NCBI GenBank assembly: GCA_963708135.1
Contig: OY970192.1
Coordinates: 864,001-928,000, forward strand
Reading direction: 5' to 3'
DNA: 64,000 bases
From: an uncultured Gemmatimonadales bacterium
GTDB taxonomy: Bacteria > Gemmatimonadota > Gemmatimonadetes > Longimicrobiales > RSA9
Both the position numbers and the translations under genes were made by a program. The notes under the pieces were generated by a model. It saw only the letters and a list, made by a program, of their open reading frames with translations, had not been told where the DNA came from and ran no database searches. This document shows, piece after piece, positions 22,463 to 36,375 of the stretch (position 1 is the stretch's first letter; every line of letters begins with the position of its first letter).

Positions 22463-25400
22463 TTACGGCAACACATCCCAGAACGAGGGGTCGGCATCGG
22501 CCTTCGCCTGCTTGCCGTCCGCCGAGACTCCCGCCGTGAACGTCTTGTTGTCCCCGCTGGTGTTGAACGCCTCCATGGCGTTCGCGGCCTCCTGGATCGC
22601 GGTCACGTCCGTGCCGCAATAGGCCGCCTTCGCCTGAGCGATGCTCGTCCCCCCGCTCGGAGAGGATCCGAAGGCCGCGTTGTTCAGGATCGCTGCCAGC
22701 AGCTGCTGCAGCAGCGTCATCCTGGCCTGGTCCAGCGCCGAGCGCGCGCCGCCGGTGCTGGTCCCGGAGATGCTCGACCAGAATCCTCCCAGCACGCCGC
22801 CGATCGTGGAGACCTCCCGGGTGCACACCGTGCGACTGCCGAGGCCGGTGAACGTGTGTCCGCCCACCGAGCCGCCGAACCACACCGCGTTGGTCACGCT
22901 CTCGTGCGTGGCCCAGAAGCCCTGCGTCCTCGTCGTGCCGGTGTTCTGCTGGTTGATGAAGGTGCAGGTGACGGTTTCGCCGTTCACGAGCGTCGTGGAG
23001 ACCGTCGAGGTGGCGGCCGGGTCCACCGACGCCTCGCCCTGGGCCGAGCAGCCGAGGTCGGTGAGGATGTAGCCGGCCGTCGGGGACTCGGTGATCGTCT
23101 TCACACCGGCCGGGAGGTTCTCGAAGACGACCGTGTCGGCAAGGTCGACCCCCGGCGGGGTCAGGGTGAAGCTGGGGGCGATGCCGACGCCCGTCGCCGT
23201 GAAGGCGAAGGTCGCGGCCGCGCCCTTCACCTGCTTTACGATCCTCAGCACAGCCGGCTGGTCGTTGTTGGTGATGGTGCAGGTGACGGTGTCGCCGGCG
23301 GCGATGGTGACCGAGCCGGACTGCGCGTCGCCACTGACCAGCCCCTTGGTGCAGCTCCAGGTGCCGTCCGTGTAGCCGCTCACCGCGTTCTCGTGCAGGC
23401 TGTAGGTGCCCGCGGCCACGCCCAGGCGAGCGCTCGTGTAGCGCAGCGTGGCCGTGCCGTCCGCCACGCCCGCCCCGAAGCTCAGCGTGCCGGCGCTGGT
23501 CGTGAGGCCGAAGTCGCCCACGGCCTTCGTGCCGCCGTCGTCGTTCACGACGCGCTTCACCACGCTCAGCGCGCCGCCGCTCCCGCCACTGCCGCCGCCC
23601 CCGCTGCCGCCGCCGGGATTGTCGTTGTTGGTGATGGTGCAGGTCACGGTGTCGCCGGCGGCGATGGTGACCGAGCCGGTCTGCGCGTCGCCACTGACCA
23701 GCCCCCTGGTGCAGCTCCAGGTGCCGTCCGTGTAGCCGCTCACCGCGTTCTCGTGCAGGCTGTAGGTGCCCGCGGCCACGCCCAGGCGAGCGCTCGTGTA
23801 GCGCAGCGTGGCCGTGCCGTCCGCCACGCCCGCCCCGAAGCTCAGCGTGCCGGCGCTGGTCGTGAGGCCGAAGTCGCCCACGGCCTTCGTGCCGCCGTCG
23901 TCGTTCACGACGCGCTTCACCACGCTCAGCGCGCCGCCGCTCCCGCCACTGCCGCCGCCCCCACTGCCGCCGCCGGGATTGTCGTTGTTGGTGATGGTGC
24001 AGGTGACGGTGTCGCCGGCGGCGATGGTGACCGAGCCGGACTGCGCGTCGCCACTGACCAGCCCCCTGGTGCAGCTCCAGGTGCCGTCCGTGTAGCCGCT
24101 CACCGCGTTCTCGTGCAGGCTGTAGGTGCCCGCGGCCACGCCCAGGCGAGCGCTCGTGTAGCGCAGCGTGGCCGTGCCGTCCGCCACGCCCGCCCCGAAG
24201 CTCAGCGTGCCGGCGCTGGTCGTGAGGCCGAAGTCGCCCACGGCCTTCGTGCCGCCGTCGTCGTTCACGACGCGCTTCACCACGCTCAGCGCGCCGCCGC
24301 TCCCGCCACTGCCGCCGCCCCCGCTGCCGCCGCCGGGATTGTCGTTGTTGGTGATGGTGCAGGTCACGGTGTCGCCGGCGGCGATGGTGACCGAGCCGGT
24401 CTGCGCGTCGCCACTGACCAGCCCCCTGGTGCAGCTCCAGGTGCCGTCCGTGTAGCCGCTCACCGCGTTCTCGTGCAGGCTGTAGGTGCCCGCGGCCACG
24501 CCCAGGCGAGCGCTCGTGTAGCGCAGCGTGGCCGTGCCGTCCGCCACGCCCGCCCCGAAGCTCAGCGTGCCGGCGCTGGTCGTGAGGCCGAAGTCGCCCA
24601 CGGCCTTCGTGCCGCCGTCGTCGTTCACGACGCGCTTCACCACGCTCAGCGCGCCGCCGCTCCCGCCACTGCCGCCACCACTCCCGCCCCCGCCACCCTT
24701 ACTGGCCGGAACGACCGTGACCACCGCGGTGTCGGACGCCCCTCCCGAGGTCGCTACCACGAGCCCGGTGCCCAGCGCGAGGCCTGTCAGCACGCCGGTC
24801 GGCGAGACGCCGACGATCGTCGGACTGAGGGATACCCACGTCACGGTGTACGGCAGCGGGTTCCCGCCGGCATCGCGCGGCGTCGCGACGAGCGTCTGTT
24901 GCCCGCCCAGTGGGACGGTGGGGTTCGGAATGGAGAGCGTGATTACGTCCACCGGTGCCCCGACCGTGACCGCGACGTCCACCGTGAGCGGGGCCACCCT
25001 GGGCGCGCTGGAGGTCACGGTTACGATGGCATGGTAGACCCCCGCGCCGAGCTGGCTGAGGTCGGCCCGCAGCGTCAGCATCGCCGGGGCGGCGGTCGGG
25101 GTCACGGTCGCGCTGAGCCATCCGGTCGGCTCCCCTGCGGCGTAGCTCACGCTCACGGACAGACCGTCGAGGACTCCGGTGCCGACGTTGGTGATCTCCA
25201 CCTGAGTGGCGATGCTGCCGGAGCTGACCGCGCCGCCGAGGCCCACCTGGCTCGTGCTCGCGGCCAGCACCGGGCGACCGACCCGGATAGACGCCGTACC
25301 GAACTGGCCCTCATACGTAGCCGTGATGATCGCGCTGCCGTTTCCCACGGCCGTGACGAGGCCACCCGCGTCCACTCTCGCCACCCCGGGATCGCTCGTG

Positions 25401-26452
25401 GACCAGGCGACGGTCCGGCCCGAGAGCGCATGACCCGCGCCGTCCACGGGCTTCGCATCGAGTCGCGTCGTCTCCCCGATCGAGAGAGCGGCGAGGTCGG
25501 GGCTCACCAGGACCGCCACCGCGGTGGCGGGCCACACGACGACGACCACGCTCGCGCTCTGTCCGTCCACGGAAGCGGTAATTACGGCGGTCCCGGGTGC
25601 CACCGCGCGGATGGTCCCGGCGTTGTCAACCGTCACCGTGCCGGGATTCAGGCTCGTCCACGTGAACGACCGCTGGAGCGCGTTCCCGTTGCGGTCCCGG
25701 GCCGTGGCGGTGAGCGACGCGGTCGAGTCGAGCGAGACGGCGAGACTGTCTATCCGGAGCGCTACGCGTTCGACGGTCGCGTGGACCCCGACGCGGGTCT
25801 GCGCGGTGAACCCCTGGTACGACGCCGTCAAGTGGGCATCGCCCTCCGTCACGGCCGTGACGAGCCCGGTGGGAGTGACCCGCACCACACCGCCACCGTC
25901 GGCCGTCCAGCTCGGCTGGATGCCGGTCACGGTGTCGCCGTTCGCGAACACGACGGCGGCCGTCGCCTGCACCGTGTCGCCCAGCGCGGTGAGCGTGCGG
26001 GACGAGTCGGCGGCGACCATGCCGGCTACCACCGGTGTCACGGTGACCACCACCGTGTCCCGCATCCCGCGGCGCAGTACCCCCGACCCGGTGCCGTGGA
26101 ACATCGCGCGCCCCTGGCTGGTGAGGTCCACGCTGATCTGGAAGGTGCCGATCGGGTTCCGTATGCGCAGCTCGATCGGGAGCTTGGCGTCGCTCGTTCC
26201 GGAGCTCGTCACGACCGTGTCGAGCACCGTCGTCGCATTGGCGACCAGCTGCAGGTGCGCGGCGTCGGTGTGGGCGAACGCCTCCGCCGTGCCCGCCGCA
26301 TTCGCCGAGGCCGTCACCGAGAGCGACAGTGTCAGCGGCGGCTCCGCGGCCGCGGGCGCCAGCAGGCGGTCGGTGCAGCTCCCGCTCAGGGCGGCAGAGG
26401 CAACCATGGCGAGTTGGAGCGCCAAACGAGTGCGGCGAGACACGTGGATCAT
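22463..26452 (-). CDS. 1329-aa surface lipoprotein / adhesin-like: Big_2 Ig-like domains, BACON-like domain, 4+1 CnaB/SpaA-like domains, C-terminal TQGFWATH domain
   Basis: ALSGSC lipobox-like signal; WSTSDPGVARVDAGGLVTAVGNGSAIITA-type Ig repeats; 120-aa repeats with Gly/Ser linkers; ATGA overlap with the upstream gene. Confidence 0.85.
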   Translation of the reverse strand: MIHVSRRTRLALQLAMVASAALSGSCTDRLLAPAAAEPPLTLSLSVTASANAAGTAEAFAHTDAAHLQLVANATTVLDTVVTSSGTSDAKLPIELRIRNPIGTFQISVDLTSQGRAMFHGTGSGVLRRGMRDTVVVTVTPVVAGMVAADSSRTLTALGDTVQATAAVVFANGDTVTGIQPSWTADGGGVVRVTPTGLVTAVTEGDAHLTASYQGFTAQTRVGVHATVERVALRIDSLAVSLDSTASLTATARDRNGNALQRSFTWTSLNPGTVTVDNAGTIRAVAPGTAVITASVDGQSASVVVVVWPATAVAVLVSPDLAALSIGETTRLDAKPVDGAGHALSGRTVAWSTSDPGVARVDAGGLVTAVGNGSAIITATYEGQFGTASIRVGRPVLAASTSQVGLGGAVSSGSIATQVEITNVGTGVLDGLSVSVSYAAGEPTGWLSATVTPTAAPAMLTLRADLSQLGAGVYHAIVTVTSSAPRVAPLTVDVAVTVGAPVDVITLSIPNPTVPLGGQQTLVATPRDAGGNPLPYTVTWVSLSPTIVGVSPTGVLTGLALGTGLVVATSGGASDTAVVTVVPASKGGGGGSGGGSGGSGGALSVVKRVVNDDGGTKAVGDFGLTTSAGTLSFGAGVADGTATLRYTSARLGVAAGTYSLHENAVSGYTDGTWSCTRGLVSGDAQTGSVTIAAGDTVTCTITNNDNPGGGSGGGGSGGSGGALSVVKRVVNDDGGTKAVGDFGLTTSAGTLSFGAGVADGTATLRYTSARLGVAAGTYSLHENAVSGYTDGTWSCTRGLVSGDAQSGSVTIAAGDTVTCTITNNDNPGGGSGGGGSGGSGGALSVVKRVVNDDGGTKAVGDFGLTTSAGTLSFGAGVADGTATLRYTSARLGVAAGTYSLHENAVSGYTDGTWSCTRGLVSGDAQTGSVTIAAGDTVTCTITNNDNPGGGSGGGGSGGSGGALSVVKRVVNDDGGTKAVGDFGLTTSAGTLSFGAGVADGTATLRYTSARLGVAAGTYSLHENAVSGYTDGTWSCTKGLVSGDAQSGSVTIAAGDTVTCTITNNDQPAVLRIVKQVKGAAATFAFTATGVGIAPSFTLTPPGVDLADTVVFENLPAGVKTITESPTAGYILTDLGCSAQGEASVDPAATSTVSTTLVNGETVTCTFINQQNTGTTRTQGFWATHESVTNAVWFGGSVGGHTFTGLGSRTVCTREVSTIGGVLGGFWSSISGTSTGGARSALDQARMTLLQQLLAAILNNAAFGSSPSGGTSIAQAKAAYCGTDVTAIQEAANAMEAFNTSGDNKTFTAGVSADGKQAKADADPSFWDVLP
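23261..24676. repeat. 4 x 360-bp near-identical intragenic tandem repeat with an A-B-A-B variant pattern
   Basis: Units start at 23261, 23621, 23981, 24341 and differ at only a few positions. Confidence 0.97.
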
Positions 26453-27576
26453 CGCTCTGCTCCTCCGAAGCGCACACCCATCCCGAGGTCGAATCCCGTG
26501 AAACCCGTACTGCTCCCCTGGGCCACCAGCACCCGGCCGAAGCGCGCCCGTGCCTGTGGCAGGACGAGCGCCCGGCGGCCGATCGGAATCTGCGCGGAGG
26601 CGCCGACCCCGACGATCGTCCCCTGGTCGAGGCCGTCCGCCCGGCGAACCACGCGCACGTCGGTGGCCGGAAGCAGGACCCAGCCGCCCAGGGGCAGCCG
26701 TAGCCCGCCACCGACGAGATAGAGATCCTGCGCCTCCGGCTGCGTTGGCCCCGCGCTCAGGTACGTGCTGCGTGCGCGACGCAGCAGCCCGGCGTAGACG
26801 AGCCCGCTGGCCCGGGCCCCGGCCGCGAATGCGTAGGAGCTCATGACCTGGACCCGATCCCCGGAGCGATAGAGGTTGGCGCCGTCCACCTGGTCGGTGC
26901 TGCTGTGGAGATAGGTGAGCTGGAGCGACGCCTTCCCCGAAGATCCCGTATTGAGGTCAAGGGCGAGGCGTCCCCGGAGCTGGTTTCCCGGCCGGTAGCC
27001 GAACTCTGGCTCGCTCAGCAGATCGTAGCGGCGGCCGACGAGGTAGGAAGCGCTCACGCCCAGGCCGAAGCGACCCGTCGAATGCGCCGCCGCGACCGCC
27101 AGCCCCCCGGCGCCGCCCGCGCCCCAGTTGGAGATCCGGAACGGCAGCAGCTCCGAGGCGATCACCCCGGCCAGCATGGCCTCATCCAGGGTCTGGCGCT
27201 CCATGCCAGTCGGCAGGATCGCCACGGCGGTCACCGACGCCATCTCGCCGTGCACGGGGAGCACGAGGCTCAGCTGGGTGTCCGTGAAGCCGCTCAGCGT
27301 CACCTTGGAGCCGTCCTCGAGCTTGAGGGTGCCGCGCGCGTAGGCGCCGTCCAGGCTCAACGAGGAGCCGAGGAAGAACGGGACCCGCACTGCCACCGGA
27401 ACCGTCAGCAGCGAGACGGCATCGATCCCGGTCTGCGTCGGGTCCCTGAAGTGGTAACCCTCGTAGCTCGCGGCCAACCCGGCCGAAGGCGCCTGCGCCA
27501 GCGCGCCCGCAGGGGCGAGGGCGGTGGCCAGCGCCAGCGCGGGCACCAGCCGGTGAACCCGACGGGAGTGGGTCAT
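26449..27576 (-). CDS. Putative outer-membrane beta-barrel protein
   Basis: Sec signal ending ALA-Q, many amphipathic strands, C-terminal FDLGMGVRF beta-signal-like strand; SD GAGGTG. Confidence 0.75.
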   Translation of the reverse strand: MTHSRRVHRLVPALALATALAPAGALAQAPSAGLAASYEGYHFRDPTQTGIDAVSLLTVPVAVRVPFFLGSSLSLDGAYARGTLKLEDGSKVTLSGFTDTQLSLVLPVHGEMASVTAVAILPTGMERQTLDEAMLAGVIASELLPFRISNWGAGGAGGLAVAAAHSTGRFGLGVSASYLVGRRYDLLSEPEFGYRPGNQLRGRLALDLNTGSSGKASLQLTYLHSSTDQVDGANLYRSGDRVQVMSSYAFAAGARASGLVYAGLLRRARSTYLSAGPTQPEAQDLYLVGGGLRLPLGGWVLLPATDVRVVRRADGLDQGTIVGVGASAQIPIGRRALVLPQARARFGRVLVAQGSSTGFTGFDLGMGVRFGGAER

Positions 27577-27586
27577 GCGGTGCACC

Positions 27587-28882
27587 TCACGGCCGGCTGA
27601 TGATGACGACTGGCATGGCCGGAATGGAGAGCCCATCCATCCCGAGGATCTCAGAGCCCGGATTGCGCGCGATCGGGTCCGGCAGCAGCACCATCACCGG
27701 GTCGAGCCCCACGACCGAGACCGGTCCGGTCCGGATCTGACGATCCACGAGGGAGGGCGACGGTGGACCGCTTCCGCTCTCGGCGGCGGCTTCCGCCAGC
27801 CGCTCCGGCGTCTGCGTCTCGCCCGAGCTCAGCGCCTCCGCCTCCCGCTCCCGCGTCGCCGCTTCCCGGAACGACGGGTCGAGCGCGGCGGCCTTCCGGA
27901 AATGCCCGGCGGCCTCGCTGAACCGACCCGCGTCCAGCGCCTCGAGGCCCGAGCCGAACGCGAGGAGCGCCTGCAGGTTCCCGGTAGCCCGGTGCTCCAC
28001 ACGCTCCCGTTCCGCCGGCGTGAGCTGGATCCCCATCGCATCGTACAGCCCCAGCGCGATCTGCTTCTCCATGTCGAAGAGGCGGGTCACTCGGGCCTGC
28101 GCCTGCACCGGCGCCAGGCTGCCGAGGTCCGTGCCGACGCCGACCACTGCCGCACTGATCCGCAGCTCGTCGGCGCCCCCGCCGATCCGACCCTCCACCA
28201 CCCGCCCGGCGTGCAGCAGCTGGCCGCTCCGGACGGCAGTGGCGGGATCGACCAGGCCGGAGTCGGAGAGACCGATCTCGTCAATCAGTAGCTGGACCTG
28301 CGTGCGCTCCAGCACGCGGAGCCGCCGCGTCTGGGAGAGGTCGGTCGTCAGCAAGGAGGAGAGCGCCCGGCTCAGCGGCGCGTACTGCGGATCGCTGCCC
28401 GCGTACAGGAAGGGGAAGATGGCCAGATTGCGCGGCTCCGGCGGGGACTGCGAGAGCTGCGCCTCCCGCGCCAGCGCCCCGCGAACCGCCGCCACGAGCT
28501 CTTGCCGTCGAAGGTGCGCCAGCCGACTCCGGATGGCGCCCTTCAGGCGCTCCGATCCACCCAGCGCGAGGAAGCGCCGGTAAAGGTCGGCGGCCGCAGA
28601 ATCCTGGCCCAGGTCGTCTTCCGTCAGTGCCAGGTTCAGCACGCCCGGCGCGCTCCGGGGATTCGCGGCTACCACGCGCCCGAGCACCGCGCGTGCCGAA
28701 TCGCGCTGCCCGGCCGCGCGCAGGGCGGCGCCCAGCGCCACCTGCGCATCCTCGCCACCCCCATCGCCGGCCTGCTGCCGCAGGCGCGCGAGCTCCGACG
28801 GCGTGGGAGCTCGATTGACGGATACCTGCCCCGCACACCCGCCGACGAGCACGGCGAGCATCAAACAAAGACGCCGATCCAT
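27587..28882 (-). CDS. TPR + CsgG/HfaB(TolB-N)-like lipoprotein
   Basis: LVGGC lipobox; TPR helices; LAIFPF...TDLSQ..LRVLERTQVQLLIDE...VDPATAVRSGQLL CsgG-like segment; second TPR. Confidence 0.8.
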   Translation of the reverse strand: MDRRLCLMLAVLVGGCAGQVSVNRAPTPSELARLRQQAGDGGGEDAQVALGAALRAAGQRDSARAVLGRVVAANPRSAPGVLNLALTEDDLGQDSAAADLYRRFLALGGSERLKGAIRSRLAHLRRQELVAAVRGALAREAQLSQSPPEPRNLAIFPFLYAGSDPQYAPLSRALSSLLTTDLSQTRRLRVLERTQVQLLIDEIGLSDSGLVDPATAVRSGQLLHAGRVVEGRIGGGADELRISAAVVGVGTDLGSLAPVQAQARVTRLFDMEKQIALGLYDAMGIQLTPAERERVEHRATGNLQALLAFGSGLEALDAGRFSEAAGHFRKAAALDPSFREAATREREAEALSSGETQTPERLAEAAAESGSGPPSPSLVDRQIRTGPVSVVGLDPVMVLLPDPIARNPGSEILGMDGLSIPAMPVVIISRP

Positions 28883-29234: not shown

Positions 29235-29657
29235 CTAGCGCCTCAGCGCCTCGAGCCGCGCGCGTACCTCGGCCGGCAGCCGCGCCTTTGCCCCCGCCCC
29301 GTAGTCGTATGCGACGACGACACCCTCGCCCTCAGCCGCGACCGCGGCCTGCGCGGTGCTGACGAGACGGTACTCCATCGTGAAGCGGTCCTCCCCGATC
29401 TCGGTGGCCCGCGTGCCGACGCGGACCGTGTCCGGGAAGGCGAGCGGGCGGCGAAAGCGGCAGCTCGTGGAGGCCAGGATCGGGCCCACGCCGCCGTTCA
29501 TCGCACCCTCGCGGAAAGCGATGCGGATCAGCAGCTCGATCCGCGCGATCTCGAAGTAGCGAAAGAACACCGTGTTGTTCACGTGCCCGAACGCGTCCAT
29601 GTCCCCCCAGCGCAAAGGAACATCGACGACGATCGGGAAGCCGGCGAGGAGGTCCAT
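29235..29657 (-). CDS. Acyl-CoA thioesterase (4HBT/YbgC family)
   Basis: WGDMDAFGHVNN, YFEIAR, FRRPLAFPD. Confidence 0.92.
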   Translation of the reverse strand: MDLLAGFPIVVDVPLRWGDMDAFGHVNNTVFFRYFEIARIELLIRIAFREGAMNGGVGPILASTSCRFRRPLAFPDTVRVGTRATEIGEDRFTMEYRLVSTAQAAVAAEGEGVVVAYDYGAGAKARLPAEVRARLEALRR

Positions 29658-32970: not shown

Positions 32971-35900
32971 GTGCGCCCGCGCCGCTTCCTCGTCGCCTTC
33001 CTCGGGCTCCTGCTGCCGCTCCTCGCGGTGGGGCAGGCGCGCGCGCAGCAGTACTTCGGCCGCAACAAGGTCCAGTACCGCTCCTTCGACTTCAAGGTCA
33101 TCCGGACCGAGCACTTCGACGTCTACTTCTACCCGCAGGAGCGGGAGGCGGCGCTCGACGCGGCGCGCATGGCGGAGCGCTCCTATGCCCGGCTGTCGCG
33201 CGTCCTGCAGCACGAGTTCAGGGAGCGGAAGCCGATCATCCTCTACGCCTCGCACGCGGAGTTCCAGCAGACCAACGCCATTCCGAGCTTCATCGACGAG
33301 AGCACGGGCGGGGTCACGGAGCCGCTGAAGAACCGGGTGATCGTACCGTTCACGGGCGACTATGCGGACTTCGAGCACGTGCTCACGCACGAGCTGGTGC
33401 ACGCCTTCCAGTTCGATATCCTGATGCGCCGCGGCATGCCCGACACCAGCCCGATGGTCGGCCGGCTGCCGCTCTGGTACATGGAGGGAATGGCGGAGTA
33501 CCTCTCGATCGGCCGCATCGACCCGCAGACCGTCTCCTGGCTGCGCGACGCCGTGCTGTCCGGCTACATCCGCGACATCGCCCAGATGAACCGGGCCGAC
33601 GACTACCTCTCCTACCGCTTCGGGCAGTCGCTCTGGGAGTACATCGGCAGGAAATGGGGCGACGAGGTCATCGGCATCATCCTGCAGAAGACGCCGCGCA
33701 TCGGCATCGAGAGAGCGTTCCGCACCACGCTCGGCCTCTCGCTCGGCGATCTCAGCGCGGAGTGGATGACGAGCCTGCGCAAGACCTACCTGCCGCAGGT
33801 CGCCGACTACCAGCGGCCGGACGTCTTCGCGGAGAAGCTGACGCACCACGACCGGCTGGAGGACCCGTGGTACGTGGCGCCCGCGCTCGCGCCCGACGGC
33901 CGCACGATGGTCTACGTCTCGCAGCGGGGCGGCTTCTCCTTCGACCTCTGGCTTGCGGACCCGCACACGGGCGAGCCGCTCCACCGCCTCGTCACCGCGG
34001 AGCGGAACGGCGGCCTCGAGTCGCTCCGCTTCATGAGCTCGTCTGCCGCCTTCTCGCCCGACAGCCGCTTCGTGGCCTTCGCCGCGCAGACCGGCGGGCG
34101 GGACGCGCTCTACATCTACGACATCGCCCACGACCGCATCATCCGCAAGCTGCGCTTCCGGCTGAACGGCATCGCGCACCCGAGCTGGTCGCCGCGCGGC
34201 GACCGCATCGTCTTCAGCGGCAACGACGGCGGCATCACGGACCTGTTCATCACCGACCTGGACGGCCGGCTGAAGCGGCTCACGGATGACCGCTATGCGG
34301 ACCTCACCCCCTCCTGGGCGCCGGACGGCAGCGCCATCGCCTTCAGCACCGACCGCGGGCCGGGCGCCGACTTCGACCGCCTGCGCTACGGCAACCTGCG
34401 GGTCGCGCTCTACTATCCGGCTACCGGCGAGATCGAGGTGCTGCCACACCAGGAGCGGGGCAAGAACCTGAACCCTGTCTGGGCCCCGGACTCGCGCTCC
34501 CTCGCCTGGGTGGGCGACCGCACCGGCAATGACAACCTCTACCTGTTCGACCTGGCGAGCGCCGCCCTCTCGCGCGTGAGCAACGTGCTCTCCGGCGTCA
34601 TCGCCGTCACGCCCCTCTCCCCCGTGCTCTCCTGGGGCGCGGGCGGCCGCCTGCTGTTCGTCTACTTCGAGCGGGCCGGCTACAACATCTACGCGGTGGA
34701 CGACCCCCGCGCGCTGCCGCGCTTCCCCGTGGACTCGACCGGCCCGGCGCTGCTCGCCGCCGGGCCTGGCCACGCCGCAGGCGACGGCGGCGCAGCCGGC
34801 TCGCCGGCCACGGCCGCAGCCGCCTCGCCCGCCGCGGGCTCCGCCTCGGCGGTCCCACTCGACCCCGGCGCCGTGCGCGCGGCGCCGGGCGAGGTGCCGA
34901 TGCACCTGGTGCTGCCGTTCGACAGCACGGCGCTGGACGGCATGGCGCCGGCCACCCCGATCGACCGGCTGAGCGCCTCCTGGTACCACGGCAAGGACGG
35001 CTTCCGGCCGAGCTCGGAGACGCCGCCTTCACTGGCCGCCGCCGGCGGGGCGGGGGAGCGGCCCGTTTCCGTCCTCGCGCTCATGGACAGCGTGAGCACC
35101 ACGCTGCCGGACACGACCACGTTCCGCATCCGGCCCTATAAGGTGAAGTTCACGGCCGACATGATCGGGCGTCCCACGGTCGGCGCGCAGGTGGGCGGCT
35201 ACTACGGCAACGGCCTTTACGGCGGCAGCTACATCGCGCTCTCCGACATCCTCGGCAACCAGAACATCCTGGTGGCCGGCAACGTGAACGGCTCCTTCTC
35301 GGACGCGCAGTTCTTCGCCGGCTACGCGTTCCTGAAGAAGCGCGCGAACCTGACCGCCACGCTCGAGCAGATTCCGCTCTACCGCTACTATGGCGGCGGC
35401 TACCTGACGGTGGACAACGCCGGGCAGCCGCGCGACGCCGTGGCCAATGTGTTCCTGCGGGACGTGATCCGGGCTGCGGCCCTGAACGTGAGCTATCCGT
35501 TCAGCGCGTTCCGGCGGCTGGAGCTCGGCCTCACCGGCATGTACTACAAGAGCGACATCCTCTACCGCGGCTATTATCCCGACAACGGCGAGATCCTGAA
35601 CCGGACCGACCGGCTCGACCAGATGAGCTTCGCGCAGCCGATGGCGGCGCTCGTCTTCGACAACACGCTGTTCGGCTGGACGGGTCCGATCTACGGCCAC
35701 CGCTACCGGCTGCAGCTCTCGCGCACCTTCGGCGACTTCGCCTATACGGAGGCGCTGGCGGACGTGCGCAACTACTTCAACATCAAGCGCTCCGTCGTCT
35801 TCGCCTCCCAGCTCTTCACGCTCTCGCGCTTCGGCTCCGACGCCGACCGCTTCCTCCTCTTCTGGGGCGGGCCCTACTTCATCCGCGGCTACGACGGCGG

Positions 35901-36375
35901 CTCCTTCGACCCCACCTCGAAGGAGTGCGCGGACAGCCAGAGCTTCGGCGATGTGGGCTCCGCCTCGCCCTGCCCCGTGCGCGACCAGCTCATCGGCTCC
36001 AGCGCGGCGCTCATGAACCTCGAGCTCCGTTTCCCGATCATCAAGGAGCTCGACATCGGCCCGATCGGCTCCTTCCCGCCCGTCGACCTCGTGACCTTCT
36101 TCGACGGCGGCGTGGCCTGGAGCGACCGGGTCTGCCTCCAGGTCGACTACACGCTCGGCAGCCAGTGCGTCTCCGGACAGGACCACCCCGTGCACATCGT
36201 CTGGGACCGCAAATCCGGCCAGGACCCGCTCTACTGGCGCGAGCCGCTCTTCAGCTGGGGCCTCGGGCTGCGCTTCAACATCTTCTACACTGTGCTGCGC
36301 CTCGATTACGCCTTCCCCCTCGACCGACCCGACCGCCACGGCATCTTCTCGCTCTCCTTCGGTCCCTCCTTCTGA
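32971..36375 (+). CDS. Omp85/BamA-TamA superfamily protein with N-terminal zinc-metallopeptidase-like and PD40 beta-propeller domains
   Basis: Signal peptide, FGRNKVQY, HELVH..WYMEG.AEY, SWSP/WAPD repeats, IRGY, C-terminal LRLDYA...FSLSFGPSF. Confidence 0.85.
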   Translation: MRPRRFLVAFLGLLLPLLAVGQARAQQYFGRNKVQYRSFDFKVIRTEHFDVYFYPQEREAALDAARMAERSYARLSRVLQHEFRERKPIILYASHAEFQQTNAIPSFIDESTGGVTEPLKNRVIVPFTGDYADFEHVLTHELVHAFQFDILMRRGMPDTSPMVGRLPLWYMEGMAEYLSIGRIDPQTVSWLRDAVLSGYIRDIAQMNRADDYLSYRFGQSLWEYIGRKWGDEVIGIILQKTPRIGIERAFRTTLGLSLGDLSAEWMTSLRKTYLPQVADYQRPDVFAEKLTHHDRLEDPWYVAPALAPDGRTMVYVSQRGGFSFDLWLADPHTGEPLHRLVTAERNGGLESLRFMSSSAAFSPDSRFVAFAAQTGGRDALYIYDIAHDRIIRKLRFRLNGIAHPSWSPRGDRIVFSGNDGGITDLFITDLDGRLKRLTDDRYADLTPSWAPDGSAIAFSTDRGPGADFDRLRYGNLRVALYYPATGEIEVLPHQERGKNLNPVWAPDSRSLAWVGDRTGNDNLYLFDLASAALSRVSNVLSGVIAVTPLSPVLSWGAGGRLLFVYFERAGYNIYAVDDPRALPRFPVDSTGPALLAAGPGHAAGDGGAAGSPATAAAASPAAGSASAVPLDPGAVRAAPGEVPMHLVLPFDSTALDGMAPATPIDRLSASWYHGKDGFRPSSETPPSLAAAGGAGERPVSVLALMDSVSTTLPDTTTFRIRPYKVKFTADMIGRPTVGAQVGGYYGNGLYGGSYIALSDILGNQNILVAGNVNGSFSDAQFFAGYAFLKKRANLTATLEQIPLYRYYGGGYLTVDNAGQPRDAVANVFLRDVIRAAALNVSYPFSAFRRLELGLTGMYYKSDILYRGYYPDNGEILNRTDRLDQMSFAQPMAALVFDNTLFGWTGPIYGHRYRLQLSRTFGDFAYTEALADVRNYFNIKRSVVFASQLFTLSRFGSDADRFLLFWGGPYFIRGYDGGSFDPTSKECADSQSFGDVGSASPCPVRDQLIGSSAALMNLELRFPIIKELDIGPIGSFPPVDLVTFFDGGVAWSDRVCLQVDYTLGSQCVSGQDHPVHIVWDRKSGQDPLYWREPLFSWGLGLRFNIFYTVLRLDYAFPLDRPDRHGIFSLSFGPSF

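Follow-up and report, generated by a model that had tools for sequence, protein, structure and literature searches.

Routes that carry lipoproteins over the outer membrane are known for few cases, namely Slam and, in Bacteroidota, the Lpt translocon. Slam unites, in a single chain, an N-terminal tetratricopeptide repeat (TPR) domain with a DUF560 barrel of 14 predicted strands, and an 8-strand barrel is common to its cargo (PMC5449769, PMC8406197); 52% of Slam genes adjoin lipoproteins sharing one domain (PMC5449769), and Slam1 has been reconstituted as a translocon (PMC9090332). Here, we examine a cluster of three minus-strand genes in a 64,000-nucleotide window (the whole stretch of DNA analysed, positions 864,001 to 928,000 of contig OY970192.1 from an uncultured Gemmatimonadales bacterium), which encode, in order of transcription, a TPR-bearing lipoprotein (hereafter, the partner), a predicted outer-membrane barrel, and a giant lipoprotein that is the candidate cargo (Table 1). 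The cluster represents a widespread, real and apparently undescribed three-part envelope module of Gemmatimonadota, of which the linkage of the partner-barrel pair, the barrel-type model, a conserved free C-terminal strand of the partner, and the co-occurrence of a shared cargo domain with the barrel are established. No description of it was found in the literature searched, which covers few subscription journals. An earlier note on this DNA, made from the sequence alone, had suggested that the cluster could be a split translocon or anchor dedicated to the adjacent adhesin; this interpretation is partly supported, but it overlooked what is most telling, namely, the strand at the partner's C-terminus and the N-terminal domain common to the cargo.

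The likeness to Slam lies in the combination of an outer-membrane barrel with TPRs, in cargo that are often encoded next door (55 of the 161 loci described below), and in cargo that share one recognition domain, a candidate one in our case, while varying elsewhere. The differences are equally specific: the barrel is predicted to have 16 strands rather than 14, the TPRs reside on a lipoprotein of their own, encoded separately from the barrel in 157 loci, which also has an additional alpha/beta domain and ends in a free strand, and the shared cargo domain is N-terminal and putatively sandwich-like, whereas that of Slam cargo is a C-terminal 8-strand barrel. DUF560 (PF04575) had no match in the barrel protein or 117 homologs, and a search of the genome was blank, but its controls were silent too; TbpB_B_D had no match in the giant lipoprotein or 32 cargo proteins. 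Thus, the comparison with a split Slam stands only as an analogy, with no homology to Slam found.

Two other described systems invite comparison. PorE-PorP-PG1035 (PMC9143113) and SprF-SprB likewise bring together a periplasmic TPR lipoprotein, a barrel and a large surface protein, but PorE-PorP-PG1035 needs a type IX secretion system (T9SS) as well as C-terminal signals, whereas the cargo here are lipoproteins; the PorP/SprF family (PF11751) was not matched by the barrel protein or 117 homologs, and no Pfam match to a T9SS type A or B C-terminal domain was obtained in 32 cargo proteins. The genome does encode a homolog of the T9SS translocon SprA above the cut-off (G000:C1:3238058-3242659), and PorP/SprF was not found in it by a search whose controls were silent. 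PelBC, as well as BcsC and PgaA, resembles the module in its 16-strand barrel (Z 17.8), TPR scaffold and periplasmic lipoprotein (PMC12141448); here, however, the TPRs are on the lipoprotein and not on the barrel, and the barrel co-occurs with a protein domain, whereas PelBC exports polysaccharide.

The core of the module is the pair formed by the first two genes. We compiled 161 barrel loci from among the matches listed of two homolog searches together with the two loci of this genome, with few of 78 further matches included, and found the partner gene directly upstream of the barrel gene in 157, including all 53 loci fetched last. At two of the four other loci the barrel lies at a contig end (L077, L100), one (L083) has no match in the 505 nt upstream, and at the last (L095/L140) a small secreted protein takes the place of the partner. 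A second, paralogous triad is present in the same genome (G000:C1:5437537-5441554; identities of 45%, 48% and 34%), and this recurrence, combined with the coupling of the first two genes, argues that the three-gene linkage is not due to chance. In this second triad (L139, G000:C1:5437537-5442335), the cargo has 511 aa and a stand-alone CsgG-like/TPR gene comes after it; 11 other loci also contain a close homolog of that fourth gene, often divergently upstream.

The third gene is far less constant. The shared cargo domain was encoded within 1.2 kb downstream of the barrel in 55 of the 161 loci (53/148 where at least 900 nt of room was available, and 20/53 among the loci left out of profile building), and upstream of the barrel in three further loci. 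The downstream gene is often a housekeeping one, but if it overlaps the barrel gene on the same strand, it nearly always encodes a lipoprotein. Cargo-like lipoproteins thus do co-occur with homologs of the first two genes, although the third gene is not always a variable Ig-rich lipoprotein. Because it is adjacent in only 55 loci, the pair is not dedicated to this adhesin, contrary to the earlier proposal, and one barrel often goes with several unlinked cargo genes. In one family, the gene after the barrel often encodes a small protein with a lysine/alanine-rich, histone-like C-terminal tail (L042-L046, L059, L060, L068, L088, L103), which sometimes lies between the barrel and cargo genes. Sequence identities of adjacent cargo domains correlate with those of the barrels (53 loci, Spearman 0.54), and the coefficient between barrel and partner is 0.74, indicating co-inheritance, not contact. 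In two genomes, G249 and G391, cargo domains follow their own barrel and not the genome, with 41% and 55% identity within a barrel type compared to 19-25% across types.

We then compared the distributions of barrel and cargo domain across 401 Gemmatimonadota genomes. The barrel profile matched 193 genomes, of which 24 with weak matches (E above 1e-8), none carrying the cargo domain, were dropped, so that the barrel is present in 169 genomes, about 40% of those sampled. The cargo domain profile matched 145 genomes, and 140 of these have the barrel; 29 genomes have the barrel only, five the domain only, and 227 neither. For barrels matched at E<1e-40, 138 of the 142 genomes are also domain-positive. 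In mixed genera, the same genomes were positive in both searches (g16, 4/6; g13, 1/3; g25, 1/2). Leaving out one unpublished genome (G157) gives 28 barrel-only genomes of 400, with the conclusions unchanged. By comparison, SprA, matched in 294 of the 401 genomes, does not track the barrel: it is present in 167 of the 232 barrel-negative genomes and was not found in 34 of the 140 that carry both barrel and domain.

The middle gene is predicted to encode an outer-membrane barrel without a Pfam or close PDB family. It combines a Sec signal with amphipathic antiparallel strands, and an AlphaFold2 model based on 117 homolog sequences (pLDDT 93.7, pTM 0.87) contains 16 long strands, in line with the earlier expectation of a Sec-exported membrane barrel. 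The beta-signal-like end noted at the same time needs a small correction: the last residue is non-aromatic (…GVRFGGAER), and an aromatic one was found in only 31 of 157 homologs. POTRA domains, as expected of a two-partner secretion or Omp85 protein, are absent, the first strand starting at residue 31, directly after the signal peptide. The helix-bearing loop at residues 122-155 is a candidate lumenal plug.

Sequence and structure searches placed the barrel in no known family. The protein has no Pfam or NCBIfam match (the generic PF13505 was matched by 4 of the 117 homologs in a Pfam scan), its profile had no match at E 1 among PDB sequences, and Foldseek returned only generic outer-membrane barrels with a query TM-score of about 0.5 or less. 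In a wider structural search, CdiB, CymA, OprB, PgaA, PelB, FhaC and porins tied at Z 17-19, so that no family is singled out. A distant lead is Phenol_MetA_deg (PF13557; COG4313, a 12-strand channel), represented in 11% of one Atlas cluster, in a precomputed match of one homolog, and by 4RL8 at Z 12.9; this family was not matched by any of the 117 homologs, and 16 strands are predicted here. The only lead beyond Gemmatimonadota is an Atlas cluster commonest in Zixiibacteriota, and a homolog is recorded for the cultured Gemmatimonas phototrophica (P0245). An apparent partner-barrel fusion of 792 aa (P0029) was set aside as a likely frameshift, given that the internal signal peptide is retained. 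Another homolog (P0143, 530 aa, on a single short contig) has an N-terminal transmembrane segment and a Pro-rich linker before the barrel, and may be a misassembly or a trans-envelope form.

The partner ends in a variable linker followed by a hydrophobic strand and a proline. A strict pattern for this C-terminal strand is present in 147 of 157 partners compared to 9 of 1,387 background genes, and a loose one in 152 of 157 compared to 68 of 1,387. The strand is unstructured in the monomer model and is predicted to bind in trans; its gene stays with that of the barrel and the tail has no fold on its own, which makes the barrel its likely binding site. A profile of the tail is weak, recovering its own tails only at E 0.0003 and 0.006. 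In a covariation analysis of 152 barrel-tail pairs (effective number 133), the contacts recovered were limited to some between neighbouring strands within the barrel, and the top inter-protein pair (barrel 172/tail -3) can be explained by clade structure; the analysis is not used as evidence. Among 39 partners read by eye, about 6 carry an ordinary Sec signal in place of a lipobox, so that lipidation is not essential. The protein that precedes the barrel at L095/L140 (L140:9335-10989) has 149 aa, carries the same C-terminal strand pattern and is encoded by a gene overlapping the barrel start; at L140, it has no TPR or CsgG-like domain, making it a candidate natural minimal partner.

The remainder of the partner was previously described as TPRs flanking a CsgG/HfaB-like domain. 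The architecture is correct, and the protein does match CsgG (PF03783, E 5e-8, above the cut-off), but only partially, over profile positions 36-98 of 210, and the implied pore analogy fails. The domain belongs to the same alpha/beta superfamily as TolB-N, LpoB and GNA1162, all of which are better structural matches than CsgG; the rmsd is 3-4 A for TolB-N, over ~138 residues, against 14.9 for CsgG. The module also occurs many times elsewhere in the same genome, so that what carries the CsgG label is a soluble fold of common occurrence rather than a pore. A CsgG pore requires membrane-spanning hairpins, whereas in the partner model short turns join the strands and long membrane hairpins are lacking; no curli genes are linked. 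We therefore rejected the partner as a CsgG pore.

The candidate cargo share a domain of about 115 residues that starts at the lipidated cysteine, has a lipid-proximal first strand followed by a variable loop, and belongs to no Pfam family in the 29 members scanned. Behind this domain the proteins, of ~440-2,000 aa, vary widely (Ig, Fn3, RCC1, Kelch, cohesin, cupredoxin, DUF285 and InlB-type tails among 32 scanned), and 11 of the 32 have no Pfam match at 1e-5. In this single-contig genome, a profile built without the genome's own sequences detected the domain behind the two pairs (E 1e-21 and 2e-14) and nowhere else, the next match being at 0.04. The giant lipoprotein itself was expected to consist of Ig, BACON and CnaB-like domains; four Big_2 and five SpaA_2 (prealbumin/CnaB-like) matches bear out the first and last, while the BACON_2 match falls below the cut-off. 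The near identity of its 360-bp repeats points to recent expansion, and stalk length may vary between strains.

Table 1. Features of the three-gene cluster and its upstream neighbour, in window coordinates
Feature	Position	Strand	Description	Basis
Partner lipoprotein	27587..28882	minus	431 aa; lipobox LVGG-C16 (Cys16); TPR helices, alpha/beta domain, TPR-like helices, disordered linker, C-terminal strand	sequence and model
N-terminal TPR helices	28469..28801	minus	residues 28-138	domain match and model
Alpha/beta domain	28037..28438	minus	residues 149-282; TolB-N/LpoB/CsgG-type; short inter-strand turns	model
C-terminal TPR-like helices	27776..28018	minus	residues 289-369	model
C-terminal strand	27590..27622	minus	conserved, hydrophobic; family pattern G-T-I-x-I-I-I-x-R-P	homolog pattern; unfolded in monomer model
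Outer-membrane beta-barrel	26449..27576	minus	375 aa; Sec signal 1-27 ending ALA-Q28; predicted 16 strands; unclassified family	signal and AlphaFold2 model
Helix-bearing loop	27112..27213	minus	long loop after strand 5, residues 122-155; conserved PTG at start	AlphaFold2 model
Giant lipoprotein	22463..26452	minus	1329 aa; lipobox LSGS-C26; candidate cargo	sequence
Shared cargo N-terminal domain	26033..26377	minus	residues 26-140; begins at lipidated Cys; no Pfam family; candidate address domain	sequence comparison
BACON-like Ig domain	24947..25279	minus		BACON_2 E 0.008, below cut-off
SpaA/prealbumin-like repeats	23261..24676	minus	four near-identical repeats with Gly/Ser linkers	360-bp period, 3.9 copies, 99% matches
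C-terminal tip domain	22466..22948	minus	~160 aa; no credible Pfam match	Pfam scan
Thioesterase gene	29235..29657	minus	between cluster and rpsF, 350 bp upstream of cluster	4HBT_2 E 5e-29

The tight arrangement of the cluster was confirmed in the DNA, with a 10-bp gap between the partner and barrel genes (27586-27577) and an ATGA overlap between the barrel and giant lipoprotein genes (26452-26449). Its GC content of ~70-73% is the same as in the surrounding DNA. The cluster had been placed between ychF and rpsF; it does adjoin ychF, tail-to-tail, but a thioesterase gene, which was not seen as a repeated neighbour of the pair at other loci, separates it from rpsF. About 4 kb from the cluster, the window also encodes a secreted protein of 1134 aa (32971-36375) with, as judged by eye, a peptidase-like domain, a PD40/TolB-type propeller and a BamA/TamA-type barrel.

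On balance, we lean towards the view that the module is a Slam-like but non-homologous machine that exports or displays lipoproteins carrying the shared N-terminal domain. The barrel and partner likely form one outer-membrane complex that likely recognises its lipoproteins by this domain, which likely contacts the machine because it lies next to the lipid anchor and, in this genome, occurs only behind the two pairs. All three proteins would cross the inner membrane by Sec, and the lipoproteins would reach the outer membrane by Lol. The periplasmic partner would dock on the barrel via the C-terminal strand on its flexible linker, as a plug or an added strand, and its TPR and alpha/beta domains would receive unfolded cargo. 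The membrane-proximal cargo domain would serve as the address, while the variable Ig stalk and tips would fold outside, with the complex moving the cargo to the cell surface and holding it there; a surface location is suggested by stalks of up to 2,000 residues, which would be hard to fit in the periplasm. A single machine could serve several unlinked cargo genes, and, as for Slam, no energy-coupling gene appears to be linked. In its most specific form, which we advance only tentatively, the proposal is of a new type of protein secretion system, an energy-independent translocon of three parts whose 16-strand barrel would be gated or completed by the partner's C-terminal strand and which would export giant lipoproteins with an N-terminal address domain.

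Several observations weigh against this proposal. Related genomes are not independent, so that the co-occurrence profile overstates significance. The cargo domain was not detectable in 29 barrel-positive genomes, 25 of which carry a divergent barrel clade; in that clade, cargo look-alikes were recognised by eye at L129, L131 and L135, of which the profile found only L129, and the divergent domain at these loci has a cysteine-pair insertion. Conversely, three domain-positive genomes (G027, G042, G085) yielded neither a barrel nor a full-length partner; in the other two domain-only genomes, the partner gene is cut at a contig end (G182) or is partial, with an apparent break (G335). A profile of the partner's last 42 residues missed the small L140 protein, leaving that match one of pattern and position. 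Furthermore, the shared domain is missing from at least five further large Big_2 proteins of the same genome that carry lipoprotein-type signals, so that another surface route probably exists, and in Bacteroidota the LPS translocon takes lipoproteins to the surface (bioRxiv 10.64898/2026.10.03.756453). Together with such domain-less Ig lipoproteins, the common three-part layout with PorE-PorP-PG1035 (PMC9143113) lends some weight to a reading that we consider unlikely but take seriously, namely, that the pair is a dock, not an exporter. A general route such as the Lpt translocon would then bring the cargo to the surface, and the barrel and partner would only bind the N-terminal domain to position or stiffen the stalk, in the way that type B T9SS cargo is held by PorP/SprF barrels, with PorE below them. 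As regards co-occurrence, all the data are equally compatible with a dock and with an exporter. Two points lead us to favour export, namely, the lipid anchor that the cargo already possesses and the presence, in several genomes, of many cargo genes alongside one barrel: G090, G129, G025 and G122 each have one barrel match but 4-6 domain matches (matches not being strict copy numbers), which suits a shared catalyst. The 34 genomes with barrel and domain but no SprA match also imply that a T9SS is not required.

The remaining alternatives appear improbable. The tail of the partner resembles a sandwich edge strand, and the cargo domain, with its lipid-proximal first strand and variable loop, weakly matches FimG (E 0.008) and 4H40 (E 0.07), raising the prospect of a strand-exchange anchor in which the tail passes through the barrel and replaces the first strand of the cargo domain, leaving the cargo tethered to the periplasm and possibly cut from its lipid. 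Type V pili, which use donor strands in such a layout (PMC13655056), also comprise lipoproteins whose first strand lies close to the lipid, together with a membrane-held protein that has a free strand at its C-terminus. However, none of 29 cargo domains matched a type V pilin Pfam family at E 0.05, the cargo lack a donor strand pattern of their own, no conserved cleavage residue was seen in the loop, the partner and cargo domain profiles are not similar (probability 0.5%), and the gene for the tail always goes with the barrel rather than with the cargo. Type V pilus loci are not known to include a dedicated barrel. We give an equally small chance to a channel for small molecules or polymers with a lipoprotein lid or capture arm, similar to SusCD or PelBC, in which the large lipoproteins gather substrate: the barrel is as near to PelB, PgaA, BcsC and porins as to protein translocators, and PelBC joins a 16-strand barrel, TPRs and a lipoprotein ring (PMC12141448), but the cargo tips are too varied for one substrate, and among the nearest neighbours, read by eye with no family-profile scan, neither a polysaccharide synthase operon nor a repeated synthase, glycosyltransferase or TonB gene was seen. 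Slightly more doubtful still is a sensor that would span the envelope and feed into a Ser/Thr kinase or a type VI secretion pathway in the manner of TagQR-PpkA. A kinase gene is present in 11 of the 161 loci, including the second copy in this genome, and genes that look type VI-like by eye flank L031 and L033; yet kinases are less dense near the pair (11 loci in 1.87 Mb) than on average in this genome (47 in 5.45 Mb), and most loci lie among housekeeping genes. The readings of the module as a CsgG pore, a T9SS accessory and a general kinase sensor all became less likely on testing.

The newness of the module lies in its parts and their arrangement, its working logic being parallel to those of Slam and PorE/PorP; if it is only a dock, it would be less novel and akin to a known kind. 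With both a candidate address domain and a candidate docking strand defined, the system can be tested with three genes, and, if the proposal is true, the N-terminal address domain could be grafted onto other proteins for surface display. For the Gemmatimonadota that carry it, the module is a non-homologous candidate for a further route of lipoproteins over the outer membrane.

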